Notes: generated by a model not told the origin, from the sequence alone. Positions 1-45,187 are shown, numbered from the stretch's first letter. The stretch: DNA of 64,000 nucleotides from Escherichia coli (GCF_003334785.1 NZ_QOWV01000002.1), one strand, 5' to 3'. Translations and numbers: made by a program.

Positions 1-602
1 TCATCGGTTTAATTGGCGCTGGCGGTAAGCTCTCGCAAAATCGGCTTTCGGGGCTGATTTTCGAAGGGTACACCACGCTGATTCGTGGCGTGCCGGACTT
101 AGTGTTGATGCTGCTGATTTTCTACGGTTTGCAGATTGCGCTAAACACGGTGACGGAGGCGATGGGCGTCGGGCAGATTGATATCGATCCGATGGTCGCT
201 GGTATTATCACTCTCGGTTTTATCTACGGTGCTTATTTTACCGAAACGTTCCGTGGTGCTTTTATGGCAGTGCCGAAAGGACATATAGAGGCGGCGACGG
301 CGTTCGGTTTTACTCGTGGGCAAGTGTTTCGGCGGATCATGTTTCCGTCGATGATGCGTTACGCCCTGCCAGGCATTGGCAACAACTGGCAGGTGATCCT
401 CAAATCTACCGCACTGGTTTCGTTACTCGGCCTGGAAGATGTGGTCAAAGCCACCCAACTGGCAGGCAAAAGTACCTGGGAACCGTTCTATTTCGCCATC
501 GTCTGTGGCGTGATTTACCTGGTTTTCACCACTGTTTCCAATGGTGTGCTGCTGTTCCTTGAGCGCCGCTACTCCGTGGGTGTGAAGAGGGCTGACCTGT
601 GA
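1..602 (+). CDS. hisQ: Histidine ABC transporter permease HisQ, 5'-truncated at window edge (C-terminal ~200 aa present)
   Basis: Reading frame open from position 3; translation IGLIGAGGKLSQNRLSGLIFEGYTTLIRGVPDLVLMLL... recognised as HisQ; stop at 600-602 overlaps hisM start (ATGA-type overlap). Confidence 0.93.
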   Translation, partial: IGLIGAGGKLSQNRLSGLIFEGYTTLIRGVPDLVLMLLIFYGLQIALNTVTEAMGVGQIDIDPMVAGIITLGFIYGAYFTETFRGAFMAVPKGHIEAATAFGFTRGQVFRRIMFPSMMRYALPGIGNNWQVILKSTALVSLLGLEDVVKATQLAGKSTWEPFYFAIVCGVIYLVFTTVSNGVLLFLERRYSVGVKRADL

Positions 603-1315
603 TCGAAATCTTACATGAATACTGGAAACCGCTGCTGTGGACCGACGGTTATCGCTTTACTGGTGTGGCGATCACTCTGTGGCTGCTTATTTTGTCGGTA
701 GTGATAGGCGGAGTCCTGGCGCTGTTTCTGGCGATTGGTCGTGTCTCCAGTAATAAATACATCCAGTTTCCAATCTGGTTATTTACCTATATTTTTCGCG
801 GTACGCCGCTGTATGTTCAGTTGCTGGTGTTCTATTCCGGCATGTACACGCTTGAGATTGTTAAGGGAACCGAATTCCTTAACGCTTTCTTCCGCAGTGG
901 CCTGAACTGTACCGTGCTGGCGCTGACGCTTAACACCTGCGCTTACACTACCGAGATTTTTGCTGGGGCAATCCGTTCGGTTCCGCATGGGGAAATTGAA
1001 GCCGCCAGAGCCTATGGCTTCTCGACTTTTAAAATGTATCGCTGCATTATTTTGCCTTCTGCGCTGCGTATTGCGTTACCGGCATACAGCAACGAAGTGA
1101 TCCTGATGCTGCACTCTACTGCGTTGGCATTTACTGCCACGGTGCCGGATCTGCTGAAAATAGCCCGCGATATTAACGCCGCCACGTATCAACCTTTTAC
1201 CGCCTTCGGCATTGCCGCGGTGCTCTATTTAATCATCTCTTATGTCCTGATCAGCCTCTTTCGCAGAGCGGAAAAACGCTGGTTGCAGCATGTGAAACCT
1301 TCTTCAACGCACTGA
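599..1315 (+). CDS. hisM: Histidine ABC transporter permease HisM (238 aa)
   Basis: ORF 599..1315; polar amino-acid permease sequence; position between hisQ and hisP. Confidence 0.94.
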
Positions 1316-1322
1316 GAATACG

Positions 1323-2096
1323 ATGTCCGAGAATAAATTAAACGTTATCGATTTGCACAAACGCTACGGCGAACATGAAGTGCTGAAAGGGGTATCACTG
1401 CAAGCGAATGCCGGAGATGTAATAAGCATCATCGGATCGTCGGGATCGGGGAAAAGTACCTTTCTGCGCTGCATTAACTTCCTCGAAAAACCGAGTGAAG
1501 GGTCGATCGTGGTCAATGGCCAGACGATCAATCTGGTGCGCGACAAAGACGGTCAACTCAAAGTCGCCGATAAAAATCAACTGCGCTTACTGCGCACACG
1601 CCTGACGATGGTATTCCAGCACTTCAATCTCTGGAGCCATATGACGGTGCTGGAAAACGTCATGGAAGCGCCGATTCAGGTGTTGGGCCTGAGCAAGCAG
1701 GAAGCGCGCGAGCGGGCGGTGAAGTATCTGGCAAAAGTCGGGATAGACGAACGTGCGCAGGGGAAATATCCGGTGCATCTTTCCGGCGGTCAGCAACAGC
1801 GTGTTTCTATCGCGCGGGCGCTGGCGATGGAACCGGAAGTTTTACTGTTTGATGAACCTACCTCGGCGCTCGATCCTGAACTGGTAGGCGAAGTGTTGCG
1901 TATTATGCAGCAACTGGCAGAAGAGGGGAAAACCATGGTGGTAGTGACTCACGAAATGGGCTTTGCTCGCCATGTTTCTACTCATGTCATTTTCCTCCAT
2001 CAGGGGAAAATAGAAGAAGAGGGCGCGCCGGAGCAGTTATTTGGCAACCCGCAAAGCCCTCGTCTGCAACGGTTCCTTAAGGGATCGCTGAAATAA
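1323..2096 (+). CDS. hisP: Histidine ABC transporter ATP-binding protein HisP (257 aa)
   Basis: Walker [13 protein letters not shown] signature LSGGQQQR, Walker [12 protein letters not shown] in translation. Confidence 0.96.
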
Positions 2097-2292
2097 TTTC
2101 CTCTCCGGTGGCTAACGCTGCCGGAGTATTTTCATGGGGAATTTGCGAGTCAGCTTCCGCTGAAATGTAAAAGTTACAGTCCGCTAAAAATACTTCTGAA
2201 TTCGCTGTCCAAAGATAAAAACTGCCTGCTGCATTGGGTGTTAATCGTGGTTATTGTCGCGTCATCTTAAATTTGAGGGGTGACGGAACGCC

Positions 2293-3183
2293 ATGACAAT
2301 ATCGACAACTTCCACGCCGCATGATGCGGTATTTAAATCTTTTTTACGCCATCCAGACACCGCGCGGGATTTTATTGATATTCATCTTCCCGCGCCGCTG
2401 CGCAAACTGTGTGATTTAACGACGCTTAAACTGGAACCAAACAGTTTTATTGATGAAGACCTGCGGCAATATTATTCCGACCTCTTGTGGTCTGTGAAAA
2501 CGCAGGAGGGAGTGGGTTATATTTATGTAGTGATAGAGCACCAAAGTAAGCCGGAAGAATTAATGGCTTTTCGCATGATGCGTTATTCCATTGCGGCAAT
2601 GCAAAACCATCTTGATGCGGGCTATAAAGAGCTTCCATTGGTGCTCCCGATGCTGTTTTATCATGGTTGCAGAAGTCCTTATCCTTATTCACTCTGCTGG
2701 CTTGATGAATTTGCCGAGCCTGCTATAGCCCGCAAAATATATTCATCGGCTTTTCCGTTGGTGGATATTACCGTGGTGCCGGATGACGAGATTATGCAAC
2801 ACCGCAAAATGGCGCTGTTGGAGTTAATTCAGAAACATATTCGTCAGCGCGATCTGTTGGGATTAGTCGACCAAATTGTTTCGCTGCTAGTTACAGGGAA
2901 CACTAATGACAGACAGCTAAAAGCCCTGTTTAATTACGTATTACAAACAGGGGATGCCCAGCGTTTTCGTGCATTTATTGGTGAGATAGCGGAACGCGCA
3001 CCACAAGAAAAGGAGAAACTGATGACCATTGCTGACAGATTACGTGAAGAAGGCGCAATGCAGGGCAAACACGAAGAAGCCCTGCGTATTGCTCAGGAGA
3101 TGCTGGATAGAGGTTTAGACAGAGAGTTAGTTATGATGGTGACCCGACTTTCACCAGACGATCTTATCGCGCAAAGCCACTAA
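2293..3183 (+). CDS. rpnB: Rpn-family recombination-promoting nuclease / PD-(D/E)XK transposase_31-like protein (296 aa)
   Basis: ORF 2293..3183; N-terminus [28 protein letters not shown] typical of YhgA/Rpn family; known yfcI position next to hisP. Confidence 0.88.
3022..3183 (+). CDS. Candidate intragenic small protein (53 aa) from internal in-frame start at 3' end of rpnB (RpnS-like)
   Basis: In-frame ATG at 3022 preceded by AAGGAG (3010-3015) with 6-nt spacer; would encode [53 protein letters not shown]. Confidence 0.4.
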
Positions 3184-3230
3184 TCCTGTAACACCGGGAG
3201 TTAACTGGCGGATGTTTGCTGTAAACCACA

Positions 3231-4124
3231 TCAGCGAACGACATCCGCCAGCGCCTCTTCTAAATCGTACCAGCGAAACGCAAAACCCGCTTCTTCCAGC
3301 CGTTTAGGCAGCGCGCGTTGTCCACCTAATACCAGTACTGAAGATTCGCCCATTAACAGTCGAATGGCGGTCGCGGGGACGCGCAAAATGGCCGGGCGAT
3401 GCAGCGCATGACCGAGCGCATGGGCAAATTGTTCATTGCGTACCGGGTAGGGCGAAACCATATTAAATGGCCCGCGCAGCTCGTTATCCAGCAGCCAGAG
3501 AATACCGTTGACCATATCATCAATATGAATCCAGGCCAGATACTGCCGACCAGAGCCAATCGGCCCGCCCAGGCCAAGACGAAACGGCGGCAGCATTTTA
3601 CCGAGAATACCGCCATCCGGTGCCAGCACTACACCGGTACGCAGCAGGCACACTCGCGTTTTGTCACTTTGCGCCCGGCAGGCAATTTCTTCCCAGCGAG
3701 CGCAGAGTTTATGGGTAAATTCGTTATGCGGCGGTTCCTCTTCGGTAACCACCACTTCACCTAAGTCACCATAATAGCCCGTTGCCGAGCCGGAAATGAG
3801 TACCGACGGTGGCGTGTCGCTGGCATTAATCAAATCGACCAGTTTTTGCGTGATATTCCAGCGGCTTTGGCAGAGACGCTCTTTTTGCTCGTGAGTCCAG
3901 CGTTTATCAGCAATCGGTTCTCCGGCCAGGTTGATTACCGCATCAACGCCGTTGAGGTTGCTTTGATCGGCAAGCCCTTGCCATAGTGTCACCCGAGGGC
4001 CGAGAACGGAACTGGCTTTCTGCGGGTTACGCGTCACTACCGTAATTTGATGGCCCAGCTCCAGCAAACGCGGAATCAAATGGCGACCAATTAATCCTGT
4101 CCCTCCGGTGATCACTATGTTCAT
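3231..4124 (-). CDS. yfcH: NAD-dependent epimerase/dehydratase family protein YfcH (297 aa)
   Basis: N-terminal Rossmann motif [16 protein letters not shown]; ORF 3231..4124. Confidence 0.9.
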
Positions 4125-12454: not shown

Positions 12455-12699
12455 GCACTGCAAATTTTTTTTGCATGATGGAAGAAATATCTTGAGTCTA
12501 TGCCATTTTGCGTAATTTTCAGCCAATGGCATAATGTATATGAATTTGACGACTCAATGAATATGTACTACTTAGGCCTTCAGGCTGCTAAAGGATACCT
12601 GATAGTGGGTATGGAAGACAAAATGTTTTGAACGTTGTCCCGCTGAGTTGTGAATTTGCACAAATTTTTGAATCTTTATATGTGAAGTTGAGGTGAAGC

Positions 12700-13159: not shown

Positions 13160-13732
<573 letters not shown>

Positions 13733-20174: not shown

Positions 20175-20212
20175 GCCGCTGGGGGTGTTTTAAACCCCAG
20201 CGGCTTTTTTTT
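20175..20212 (+). terminator. Rho-independent terminator after lrhA
   Basis: Hairpin GCCGCTGGGG-gtgttttaaa-CCCCAGCGGC followed by T8. Confidence 0.85.
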
Positions 20213-20759
20213 AGTAAAAATCCTTCATCGCATAGTGCAGAACGTACAAAACTGTTCATTTTTCAACCACCAGAGATTCACGTCCCGAACGCACAAATAA
20301 TCGCCTGAAAAAAATCACCTGCTACAATGATGTTAAAAAATACGTAAATTTGTTGCTGCGTTTTTGTTATGGAATGACAAAAGCGTGTCACAGATCAAGA
20401 AAATACTCTCTTTTGGGGGGAGGAATCGACACAAATTCCTGTCAAAATAGACCCGTATTTTTTCCATTGCTTCACAACGGACACGATTCAACAACATCTA
20501 ATTATCCTGGAGTCGTCAAGGATCTGGGGTGAAAGGGCATTAAATGCTAATGGTGTTGATATTATGTAAACTAATGTGAAGAAACTTTTGTTAAAGTTGA
20601 CAAAAGGTTATAGAAAGGAGTAAAAAACCACATCAATTAGCTGTATAAAAGAATTTCTACAGTGATTGTAAGGTTTTTTTTATTCCTCCCCATGAATCGA
20701 TGTGGCGTCCATCTGCCGTGAAGAGCAGTGAATCTGGCGCTACTTTTGATGAGTAAGCA

Positions 20760-40109: not shown

Positions 40110-41837
40110 ATGCGAAATAAAAATATAATCATGTTGCTTATGAGTAGTTTGATTTTGTCAGGATGTGGGCCGCAACCTGAGAATAAGGAAAGTCAGCAAC
40201 AACAACCCAGTACTCCCACAGAGCAGCAAGTGCTTGCCGCGCAGCAAGCTGCAATAAAAGAGGCTGAGCAAAGCGCCGCCGCCGCGAAAGCCTTGGCCCA
40301 GCAAGAAGTGCAACAATATTCAGACAAACAGGCTTTACAGGGGCGATTGCAGGAAGCGCCAACATTTGCAAGAGCGGCTAAAGCAAAAGCTACACATATC
40401 GCAAATCCAGGAACCGCTCGCTACCAGCAGTTCGATGATAATCCGGTTAAGCAGGTAGCGCAAAATCCGTTGGCGACGTTTAGTCTTGACGTTGACACTG
40501 GCAGTTATGCGAATGTAAGGCGTTTCCTCAATCAAGGGCTGTTACCTCCGCCAGACGCTGTGCGGGTGGAGGAGATAGTCAATTATTTCCCGTCTGATTG
40601 GGATATCAAAGACAAACAATCTATTCCGGCCTCTAAGCCAATACCTTTCGCTATGCGCTACGAATTGGCACCTGCACCATGGAATGAACAGCGAACATTG
40701 CTGAAAGTTGATATCCTGGCGAAAGATCGCAAAAGTGAAGAGTTACCAGCTTCTAATCTGGTCTTTCTTATCGACACTTCTGGTTCAATGATTTCTGATG
40801 AACGTTTGCCACTTATCCAGTCTTCGTTGAAATTATTGGTCAAAGAACTTCGTGAGCAGGATAACATTGCCATCGTGACCTACGCTGGCGACTCCCGTAT
40901 TGCATTGCCTTCTATCTCCGGGAGTCATAAGGCGGAAATTAATGCCGCAATTGATTCGCTGGATGCCGAAGGCAGTACCAATGGCGGTGCCGGGCTGGAA
41001 CTGGCTTATCAGCAGGCGACGAAGGGGTTTATTAAGGGCGGCATCAATCGCATTTTATTAGCCACTGACGGTGACTTTAACGTTGGCATTGACGATCCAA
41101 AATCGATTGAATCAATGGTCAAAAAACAGCGGGAGTCTGGTGTTACTCTGTCGACGTTTGGCGTGGGGAATAGCAATTACAACGAGGCAATGATGGTGCG
41201 AATTGCCGATGTTGGTAACGGCAACTACAGCTACATTGATACCCTCTCTGAAGCGCAGAAAGTATTGAATAGTGAAATGCGGCAGATGTTGATTACCGTA
41301 GCAAAAGATGTCAAAGCGCAAATTGAGTTTAACCCCGCGTGGGTAACGGAATACCGTCAGATTGGTTATGAAAAGCGCCAACTTCGGGTGGAACATTTTA
41401 ATAACGACAACGTTGATGCAGGGGATATAGGCGCAGGCAAACATATAACGTTGTTATTCGAATTAACGCTGAACGGGCAAAAAGCATCAATTGATAAGTT
41501 ACGCTATGCCCCGGATAACAAATTAGCGAAATCGGACAAAACGAAAGAACTGGCCTGGTTAAAAATTCGCTGGAAATACCCGCAGGGAAAAGAAAGTCAG
41601 TTAGTTGAATTCCCGCTGGGGCCAACAATAAACGCGCCCTCTGAAGATATGCGTTTTCGCGCAGCAGTAGCTGCATATGGGCAAAAGTTACGCGGTTCTG
41701 AATACCTGAACAATACCTCCTGGCAGCAGATCAAACAGTGGGCTCAGCAGGCAAAAGGGGAAGATCCACAGGGTTACAGGGCGGAATTTATTCGCCTGAT
41801 TGAACTGGCGGATGGTGTGACTGACATCAGTCAGTGA
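40110..41837 (+). CDS. yfbK: von Willebrand factor type A domain lipoprotein YfbK (575 aa)
   Basis: Lipobox LILSGC at N-terminus; Q/A-rich low-complexity linker; MIDAS motif DTSGS (nt 40774-40788). Confidence 0.88.
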   Translation: MRNKNIIMLLMSSLILSGCGPQPENKESQQQQPSTPTEQQVLAAQQAAIKEAEQSAAAAKALAQQEVQQYSDKQALQGRLQEAPTFARAAKAKATHIANPGTARYQQFDDNPVKQVAQNPLATFSLDVDTGSYANVRRFLNQGLLPPPDAVRVEEIVNYFPSDWDIKDKQSIPASKPIPFAMRYELAPAPWNEQRTLLKVDILAKDRKSEELPASNLVFLIDTSGSMISDERLPLIQSSLKLLVKELREQDNIAIVTYAGDSRIALPSISGSHKAEINAAIDSLDAEGSTNGGAGLELAYQQATKGFIKGGINRILLATDGDFNVGIDDPKSIESMVKKQRESGVTLSTFGVGNSNYNEAMMVRIADVGNGNYSYIDTLSEAQKVLNSEMRQMLITVAKDVKAQIEFNPAWVTEYRQIGYEKRQLRVEHFNNDNVDAGDIGAGKHITLLFELTLNGQKASIDKLRYAPDNKLAKSDKTKELAWLKIRWKYPQGKESQLVEFPLGPTINAPSEDMRFRAAVAAYGQKLRGSEYLNNTSWQQIKQWAQQAKGEDPQGYRAEFIRLIELADGVTDISQ

Positions 41838-41857
41838 TGACTGTTTAGCAAACTATG

Positions 41858-41891
41858 TTCGACCAGTCAGCATATTTGCTGACTGGTCGAA
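41858..41891. terminator. Bidirectional terminator between convergent yfbK and elaD
   Basis: Near-perfect 14-15-bp inverted repeat TTCGACCAGTCAGCA-tattt-GCTGACTGGTCGAA with AT-rich flanks. Confidence 0.75.
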
Positions 41892-41907
41892 TTAATTAAC
41901 AATGATG

Positions 41908-43118
41908 TTAACTCACTCTTTTGCCGGATGCTCTATTTTTGGGTTGTGAGTGTTTTATTTCTAAGTTTCTATAATAATGATTGATATTTGCATCGCCATA
42001 TTTATCTAAATAACAATTTCTGTTTGCCAGTCGATGTTGAAAATCAATTTCGTACTGCTCTTCTGCTGAATATTTTTTAAATCTGTCAGCATAGTTTTTT
42101 AATAATGTATAGGGGGCGCTGTCAGAATTGCTTTCCCTTTGTTCAATCACTTCCTGGGCTGCCATGCACACAAATGCACCGCAACTTTGGCTTAAGTATT
42201 GCTGAAGATCGGCATGTAAAAATATTATCTCTGGTTCATTTAAATGAACTTTTATATTATTATTCGACATTTCTCCCATGAGTTCAGAATTAAAACTATT
42301 AATGACACGCTTAAGTGAATTTTCTTTATCATAGCCTAGTGCACGCAATGAGTTGAATATGACGCATTTTATTTGTAGTTTATTATTTTTTTATTTACTA
42401 TTTTCTGTAGCGAAACTAATATCCAGTGTCCGCCAGTATTTATGGGGAATAACTGGACTTCATTCGGCCATGATGGATCGCTCTTAATATTTTCATTGAG
42501 AGCGTCTTCCAGGTGAGTTCTGGTGGAGTAGGGGACGTAGAGACCAGTAGGATAATTGACTTGAGTATTTTTTGCATTAGCGGCGATCTTCTGAAGATAG
42601 CAAGCTATTTCATCTGTGGTTAATTGACGATTTTTATCCCAGAAGTTTGTACCATCACTCAGTTCATTATTCTCATCATTTAAAAGCACCTTTGAAAGCG
42701 ACTGTTTTTCAGATATAAGAGGAATTTCATCACCGATAATTGTCATTAATTTCGAAGGGGAGAATAGTTTTTTGAACAGGAGATCATCTGAATCATGTGA
42801 TTTGAGGGGGGAGTTGGTTGCGATATGTGCCAGATTATATAATTTTAAACAAGCATTTTTGATAAGTCGGATAATCGATAGGGTCTCATTTGTTGGGGTT
42901 CTAACAATATGGTAAAGAATATCTTCAGCTTCTTTCCCAAATTTATCATAACCTAACGCAATATTATGCAGTAACTCAATGCTTTCTTCATCTCCGGATA
43001 ACGCTGTTTTTTTTAAAGACTGCAGTAATTCCTCGGTCACAGTAAATTTTTCTGCAAATGTCTGACTGAGTTGCGTTTGAGATAATTGACAATAATTGCT
43101 GACAACTGTAACCATCAT
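41908..43118 (-). pseudogene. elaD: elaD (CE-clan deubiquitinase-like cysteine protease) disrupted by a -1 frameshift in an A7 run; two ORFs of 249 aa (42369..43118) and 146 aa (41908..42348)
   Basis: ORF track shows two adjacent minus-strand ORFs in different frames; adding one A to the coding-strand run at 42386-42392 restores a continuous 403-aa ORF; span is 1211 nt (not a multiple of 3). Confidence 0.85.
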
Positions 43119-43305
43119 GGGCTCCTTTTAGTTGCAAAGGTTGTGCTGAATCAAGATGAAAAGAGGCAACTTATTGCTCTGAATATAGTGCGTAAGGAGA
43201 TGAATAAATATCAAAAATCGCTCAATATGCCTGTGTGGGTGGATATATGTAGCGCGGGTTGCGATAACAGGGCAAGTTTCGCCCTGTTTTTAATAATAAG
43301 CAGAG

Positions 43306-44223
43306 TTAAACGTTAAACACGGTGAAATCATTCGCCAGTTCAGTCGCCGGGAAAATTGACCTGCATTCACGTAACAGGTGCTGACAACCTTTGTCATCAT
43401 AGCGCGAGCTGACGTGGGTAATGATTAGCTTGCCGACTCCAGCCTCACGGGCTAGTGTCGCAGCCTGGCGTGTAGAGCTATGGCCGCGACTATTGGCTTT
43501 GGCTTCCATGGTTATATCCAGCGTCGCTTCGTGCACCATGACATCGACACCTTTAGCCAGGTCAAGTGCGGCATCGCAGGGGCCGGTATCGCCGAAAATA
43601 GCGAGCGCTTTACCTGGCACTGGAGCAGCTAAGTAATCTGCGCCGTTAATCTGCCTTCCATCTTCCAGCGTGATTGTTTTGCCCGCTTTTAATTCCTGAA
43701 ACAGTGGGCCAGGCGGCACGCCAGCAGCTTTTAATGCCTGGGCATTTAATGCACCCGGTTTATCATGTTCTTCAATACGATAGCCATAACATTCCAGTGG
43801 GTGTTCCAGCGGATAAGCGGTTACTTTGCGCAGGCCATCATCGAGAATTTCGCCAGCGCCAATTTCGACAATTTCCAGCGGATAATCGGTCCATGAGCCG
43901 CTAATCCGCAGCGCGGTTTCCACAAATTCACGGATACCTTGCGGACCATAAATCGTTAAGGGTTGGATAATGCCTGACATAGAACGACTGCACAGCAAGC
44001 CGGGTAAACCAAAAAGATGATCGCCATGAAGGTGACTGATAAAAATCTTGTCCAGTTTTCCAGGGTTAAAGGCGGTATGCAGTAGCTGATGCTGGGTGCC
44101 TTCACCGCAGTCAAACAACCAAAGTCCGCTCTGGGTCGGATGTTGCAGGTTAAGCAATATTGCCGTGACATTGCGCGTGCGGGTTGGCACACCGGCTGAA
44201 GTACCTAAAAAAATTAATTCCAT
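43306..44223 (-). CDS. rbn: RNase BN / RNase Z (metallo-beta-lactamase fold, ~305 aa)
   Basis: HxHxDH motif (HLHGDHLFG) in translation; start placed at [11 protein letters not shown]; ORF track start is 44241. Confidence 0.9.
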
Positions 44224-45109: not shown

Positions 45110-45187
45110 AACCTCCCTACACCGGGGTACTGCATTTTTTTTGTAGTACCCCGTATAATGTGAGGCTTTTAACAGGGAGAGGTCCGC

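Follow-up and report, generated by a model that had tools for sequence, protein, structure and literature searches.

The elaD gene in the stretch of Escherichia coli DNA analysed here (64,000 nucleotides, GCF_003334785.1 NZ_QOWV01000002.1, in the following the window) is very probably a real and inherited loss-of-function frameshift pseudogene that was formed at a recurrent slippage site. Replication slippage in a run of eight A residues at codons 243-245 would have removed one A. Translation now stops after 249 residues, so that the N-terminal domain and His231 are kept and Asn256 and Cys313 lost, and without these two residues the catalytic triad of a CE-clan protease would not form. The deletion goes back to the ancestor of a small K-12-like lineage, in which a 9-bp deletion in arnB is found as well, and across E. 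coli the run has been hit independently many times.

Results

A one-base deletion disrupts elaD

In the window, elaD lies between rbn and yfbK, and the gene order is that of MG1655. Around the lesion, the coding (minus) strand reads CAG AAA ATA GTA AAT AAA AAA ATA ATA AAC TAC AAA TAA. The run of seven A residues in this stretch will be referred to as tract 2; in the intact allele it is A8, read as AAT AAA AAA AAT and encoding N-K-K-N. The shift falls at codons 243-245, within the catalytic domain. A7 against A8 is the sole length difference between this elaD and the genes of MG1655, C and 300709, and it disrupts the open reading frame as in a pseudogene. The features of the locus are collected in Table 1.

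Table 1. Features of the elaD locus, in window coordinates.
Feature	Position	Strand	Remarks
Inverted repeat	41858..41891		Perfect, 15 nt, 4-nt loop; between the stop codons of convergent elaD and yfbK
elaD pseudogene	41908..43118	-	1211 nt, against 1212 nt when intact
C-terminal ORF	41908..42348	-	146 aa; native downstream frame; Cys313 present, His231 absent
N-terminal ORF	42369..43118	-	249 aa; ATG start; TAA at 42369-42371; out-of-frame tail IINYK
Catalytic Cys313 codon (TGC)	42181..42183	-	In SQSCGAF; downstream of the shift
Asn256 codon (AAC)	42352..42354	-	In IFNSL; putative third triad residue, assigned by alignment; lies past the shift, in the other frame
Tract 2 (A7)	42386..42392	-	Gene positions 727-733; site of the 1-nt deletion; T7 on the plus strand
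Catalytic His231 codon (CAC)	42426..42428	-	Upstream of the shift; aligned with SseL 5HAF
Tract 1 (A8)	43007..43014	-	Gene positions 105-112, codons 35-38; intact in the window

A first-pass annotation, made from the sequence of the window, had already described this lesion, and its coordinates and residue numbers are all correct. The T7 of the plus strand, A7 on the coding strand, is present in the sequence, and the ORF list contains the two fragments that it had reported in different frames. The TTG with which the shorter fragment opens is only a mechanical ORF boundary. As that annotation had proposed, the addition of one A to the run produces a continuous ORF of 403 aa, and the protein encoded has the same sequence as WP_001326980.1, the intact ElaD found in strains 300709 and C. 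It had also suggested an alignment to intact elaD alleles, and in this alignment MG1655, C600, C, 300709 and E2865 all have A8 at tract 2.

Compared with ElaD of K-12, the repaired protein differs at a single residue, number 343. At this codon (window 42093), Tyr is encoded in the window and in the common allele, and His in K-12 strains. The form of ElaD that is usually studied, from K-12, is thus a minority variant at residue 343. One further change is private to the window: at 42106, the codon of Thr338 is ACA instead of ACG, a synonymous substitution absent from 5426 complete genomes and from ten extra contigs.

The catalytic residues are divided between two frames

The identification of the gene as elaD is borne out by family profiles. 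Against NF008812, the NCBIfam model of ElaD/SseL family deubiquitinases with a curated cut-off of 250 bits, the repaired 403-aa ORF reaches 455.7 bits and covers the whole profile (positions 1-343). In Pfam, it matches ElaD_SseL-like_N (PF22103) at residues 30-138 and Peptidase_C48 (PF02902, CE clan) at residues 165-362. Taken separately, the 249-aa fragment reaches 314.5 bits against NF008812 over profile positions 1-238 of 343, and the 146-aa fragment 115.3 bits over positions 248-343. The longer fragment contains the complete match to the ElaD/SseL N-terminal domain as well as the beginning of Peptidase_C48 with His231.

Intact ElaD is a ubiquitin-specific protease with isopeptidase activity, its triad consists of His, Asp/Asn and Cys, and the exchange C313S abolishes its activity (Catic et al. 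2007, PMC1847702). The repaired ElaD aligns with the solved structure of Salmonella SseL (5HAF). In the repaired protein, GGHWILV starts at residue 229 and SQSCGAF at residue 310, and the shift lies between the His and the Cys of these motifs, exactly where the first-pass annotation had put it. The three residues are consequently not found on a single polypeptide: His231 is on the 249-aa product, and Asn256 and Cys313 lie past the premature TAA.

Judged from its sequence, elaD of the window is a member of the deubiquitinase family by descent, with no complete enzyme encoded. With His231 split from Asn256 and Cys313, standard decoding would give no active protease, and ElaD activity has presumably been lost in this allele. 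The Lys/Asn-rich stretch encoded by the run appears as a six-residue insertion in the alignment with 5HAF, and may form a variable surface loop that is tolerant of A-rich codons.

Tract 2 has changed length repeatedly

To describe length variation at tract 2, 19 sequences were aligned over 1620 nt, comprising the gene and its flanks. In the case of the K-12-like haplotype, 720632 (A7), 300709 and C (both A8) and W60 (A9) differ only in the length of the run, and so do QDFD216 (A9) and MG1655 (A8). In the case of a second haplotype, 36 SNPs away, CP042934.2 (A7), E2865 (A8) and O26 97-3250 (A9) likewise show no other difference. Divergent alleles have a G-interrupted run, which is G+A7 when intact (AAT GAA AAA AAT; C5 and 2024CK) and G+A8 when shifted (AR13438). 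Altogether, at least six independent length changes, in both directions, are needed among the 19 sequences.

Because A7, A8 and A9 occur on identical haplotypes and on two backgrounds, tract 2 is a recurrent slippage hot spot. A single ancient deletion spread by descent is rejected, since identical haplotypes are found in three tract states on two backgrounds. A spread of A7 across backgrounds by recombination is unlikely: the nearest SNPs that separate the two main haplotypes are at gene positions 674 and 787, 113 bp apart, which leaves less than 113 bp for any transferred patch.

Frameshifted alleles are frequent among E. coli genomes

Prevalence was obtained from exact matches among 5426 complete E. 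coli genomes, with a 97-mer as the query for A7. An elaD match is present in 4477 of the 5426, and the gene is missing from about 17%. With flanks of the window type, tract 2 is A7 in 387 genomes, A8 in 1663 and A9 in 32; with the G-interrupted flanks of the C5 type, it is G+A6 in 17, G+A7 (intact) in 775 and G+A8 in 46. These counts cover the two flank types, about 1,200 elaD-bearing genomes with other flanks lie outside them (identity bands being uninformative for the state of the tract), and they describe prevalence and not the number of events, as clonal sampling inflates both sides through outbreak clones and laboratory derivatives of K-12.

The A7 set includes HS, O103:H2 12009, O121:H19 strains and NCTC86. 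Among draft genomes, JGI metagenomes and Logan short-read assemblies, at least 24 contigs encode the exact 249-aa product, and the run is A7 in all ten of those that were inspected. Shifted alleles make up 7.5% of the G-interrupted haplotype against 20% of the A8 haplotype, a difference whose direction fits length-dependent slippage and which is confounded by clonal sampling. The 46 genomes with G+A8 include the O104:H4 outbreak clone (C227-11, HUSEC2011, 2009EL-2071 and others), which thus carries a +1 frameshift on the G-interrupted haplotype.

A second A8 run and the decay of elaD

A second A8 run, tract 1, is located near the start of the gene and is intact in the window. At least 66 complete genomes have A7 at this place, as do HS and O26 97-3250. 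If elaD were intact, its two tracts would be the only runs of eight or more A/T in coding sequence within the 64-kb stretch. Other runs of this length in the window (12465-12472, 13200-13207, 20205-20212, 20674-20681 and 45135-45142) are all intergenic, and several of them follow or sit in terminator-like hairpins.

Several older shifted alleles have accumulated more than one lesion. The elaD of HS has been hit three times, by A7 at tract 1, by IS1A, inserted at roughly gene position 250, and by A7 at tract 2. O26 97-3250 combines A7 at tract 1 with A9 at tract 2, and the elaD genes of O121 RM8352 and NCTC9088 have internal stops. UPEC 536 retains only a remnant of 111 nt, in which homology stops at tract 1. 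Most of the shifted alleles sampled are otherwise intact. Taken as a whole, elaD behaves like a dispensable gene that is lost repeatedly. In the window allele there is no second lesion, only the private synonymous change described above, and this identifies it as a young pseudogene.

Possible residual expression of the A7 allele

The sequence of the run itself raises the question of residual expression. The A7 allele could be leaky instead of null: if tRNA-Lys slipped by -1 on U-AAA-AAA, which is followed by the rare codon AUA, full-length ElaD would be made at a few percent of the normal level. The zero frame reads AAU AAA AAA AUA, and after the slip AAU AAU AAA CUA gives the wild-type reading, N-K-K-N-N-K. 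One recognised route is slippage in the P-site ahead of a 'hungry' codon, and unprogrammed suppression by -1 frameshifting has been measured at about 4% in E. coli (PMC10861913). A close likeness is found in the attB1 sequence of pDEST17, an X-AAA-AAA site with C in the first position, at which -1 frameshifting in E. coli reached 25-60% and single-base deletions were rescued (Belfield et al. 2007, PMC1851650). As in elaD A7, there are two in-frame AAA codons and a -1 slip restores the frame. The vector, however, has C before the AAA codons and is driven by T7 for over-expression, whereas elaD has U, is expressed from the chromosome at a low level and lacks a stimulatory structure.

Compared with the slippery heptamer X_XXY_YYZ, the site is U_AAA_AAA followed by rare AUA; the A-site half is perfect and the P-site half would have one mismatch after the slip, as the U that precedes the two AAA codons would make the re-pairing of the P-site tRNA imperfect. 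The 96 nt 3' of the run do not fold into a stimulatory structure (-9.5 kcal/mol, z = +0.75), and the 20 nt upstream contain no motif resembling a Shine-Dalgarno sequence. Nor is the two-frame arrangement conserved: A8 or G+A7 keeps the gene in frame in 1663 + 775 genomes, against 387 + 32 + 17 + 46 that are shifted. A programmed frameshift signal was rejected on both grounds, the missing downstream structure and the missing conservation. Transcriptional slippage was rejected as a rescue, because the RNA polymerase of E. coli slips appreciably only on runs of more than seven A residues (PMC6260861). In addition, the secondary lesions in older A7 lineages argue against selection on the rest of the gene or on the downstream frame. 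Overall, we regard leaky expression of the A7 allele as unlikely.

Slippage hot spot or contingency locus

The repeated length changes could also mean that the A8 run is a contingency locus, with a slippery tract retained by selection as a reversible off/on switch of elaD within lineages. Like the simple-sequence contingency loci of host-adapted bacteria, which show homopolymer-mediated phase variation, elaD has a coding homopolymer that varies by +/-1 among near-identical haplotypes and turns the ORF off. The A7/A8/A9 polymorphism on haplotypes identical over 1620 nt, the two A8 runs that are the only coding runs of this length in the intact version of the stretch, and the otherwise intact state of most shifted alleles sampled all point in this direction.

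Against this stand several properties of the gene. A8 is not maintained as such, as the divergent alleles with G+A7 are intact in 775 genomes. Second and third lesions in several shifted lineages indicate that the loss of elaD is terminal there, and the gene is deleted in many lineages, as seen in the 4477 matches among 5426 genomes and in the 111-nt remnant of UPEC 536. The low G+C content of elaD, about 35% against about 47-50% in adjacent genes, by itself predicts A runs. Eight bases are short for a classical phase-variable tract. Set against the general background on classical contingency loci, the elaD run differs in being short and G-interrupted in other alleles, in the decay of its off-alleles, and in that the compared sequences demonstrate no reversion event and no high switching rate.

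Selection for reversible switching is very unlikely on this evidence, and the tract can be called a 'contingency site' only in the weaker meaning of a mutational hot spot. The joint reading, in which elaD is a slow reversible on/off gene operated through its two A8 runs and A7 is not fully off owing to the -1 slip, seems quite unlikely; it would turn hundreds of E. coli 'pseudogene' alleles from dead genes into low-expression alleles of a ubiquitin-directed effector. The favoured interpretation continues to be that of a pseudogene formed by slippage at a hot spot.

The deletion is inherited and not a sequencing error

Homopolymers of eight bases are a weak point of some sequencing chemistries, and the missing A could be a miscall in a strain that truly has an intact A8 elaD. 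This was addressed by comparing the window with its relatives. Over 46.4 kb compared with MG1655, the window shows 4 SNPs, the 1-nt deletion in elaD and one in-frame 9-bp deletion in arnB; there is no further single-base indel, and all four remaining A/T runs of 8 nt within these 46.4 kb have their full length.

The arnB deletion (window 59474/59475, minus strand) proved to be a useful marker of descent. Diversity was too low for the SNPs of the 25-kb neighbourhood to resolve the A7 clade, but the arnB marker resolved it. Only two of the 5426 complete genomes share this deletion, JKHS016 and AST198. Both have A7, and over 41-46 kb they align collinearly with the window and differ from it by 4-6 SNPs and by no indel. 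As three independent assemblies of one small lineage all have A7, the deletion is inherited. JKHS016 and AST198 are both from Japan. The gene affected, arnB, encodes UDP-4-amino-4-deoxy-L-arabinose aminotransferase; its deletion sits between AATGGCG direct repeats and removes three residues in frame (approximately 141-143, DIDAIRAIGERYG).

A baseline for the error rate was taken from a comparable T8 run that lies 2 kb away in the loop of the elaB terminator (45135-45142). In the same 5426 assemblies, this run is T7 in 12 and T8 in 4042 genomes, so that about 0.3% are shortened, a figure that bounds the error rate and not the neutral mutation rate, as selection may act on a run that belongs to the loop of a terminator hairpin. 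At tract 2 of elaD, the share of A7 among A7 and A8 is about 19%. Miscalls at the rate of the control run would therefore explain only a handful of the 387 A7 genomes. A7 is also found both in older finished genomes and in short-read assemblies.

Thus the relatives, the error baseline and the lack of other 1-nt indels indicate, if indirectly, that the missing A is in the DNA of the organism and is inherited. A precedent for the opposite view exists, as a frameshift in an A-rich region of elaD in strain 53638 was put down to 'sequencing slippage' by Catic et al. (PMC1847702); on the evidence given here, a miscall in the window is highly improbable, and we rejected it.

Surroundings of the gene

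Downstream, the inverted repeat listed in Table 1 is probably a shared transcription terminator of elaD and yfbK. It has no T-run and was not called by the terminator scan, which found no terminator-like sites at elaD on either strand. An RNA gene or other feature overlapping elaD on either strand was rejected: there is no Rfam match in 41000-44000, and promoter-like sites are below chance expectation.

The genes beside elaD are themselves variable. In E. coli C, O103:H2 12009, O121 RM8352 and C5, yfbK and yfbL are replaced by a short gene annotated as 'hypothetical protein, frameshifted'. In the extracted loci, the replacement lies downstream of elaD at 3097-3729 (L003), 3122-3758 (L007), 3118-3753 (L009) and 3123-3752 (L015). 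This is a presence/absence polymorphism flanking elaD.

Discussion

The first-pass annotation had left three options for the split gene: a true pseudogene, a slippage-prone contingency site or a homopolymer sequencing error. The inherited pseudogene is upheld, the contingency site survives only as a mutational hot spot, and the sequencing error falls.

The closest characterised relative is ElaD of K-12 (b2269; WP_001393504.1), a CE-clan deubiquitinase orthologous to SseL of Salmonella, with which the window shares locus, gene order and protein families. The K-12 gene is intact, whereas that of the window has one A fewer at codons 243-245 and a frame broken between His231 and Cys313.

Pseudogenes of elaD are already known. 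Catic et al. [quoted passage not shown] More recently, full-length elaD alleles with 'premature termination' were reported in 88 of 530 strains, clustered in two regions of the tree (Wang et al. 2025, PMC12575377); the word 'frameshift' and any mechanism are absent from that report. Like the window allele, the published pseudogenes have a single-base frameshift that leads to a premature stop, and HS has the same A7 at tract 2. The deletion shared by the alleles of Catic et al. is most likely that of tract 1 at gene position 105 and not that of tract 2, because HS has A7 there and the homology of the 536 remnant stops there. Neither of the two papers names the homopolymer of tract 2 or counts its length variants, and the window allele has the tract-2 lesion only.

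RefSeq also flags the allele as frameshifted: PGAP labels the identical 1211-nt allele of strains 720632, AST198 and JKHS016 'deubiquitinase ElaD, frameshifted'. The increment of the present analysis is the identification and counting of two homopolymer hot spots. The results suggest that frameshifts in the A-rich runs of elaD are usually real, and the one in strain 53638 that was set aside in 2007 as sequencing slippage may be real as well.

In conclusion, elaD of the window should be annotated as a frameshifted pseudogene, and not as two small ORFs or as an assembly error. A count and a mechanism are thereby added to the published finding that elaD is prematurely terminated in many E. coli. 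Most such cases can be traced to +/-1 changes in two A8 runs, repeated on unrelated backgrounds. Neutral and favoured loss are not distinguished by this pattern, and its repetition fits a gene that is not needed by most lineages of E. coli.
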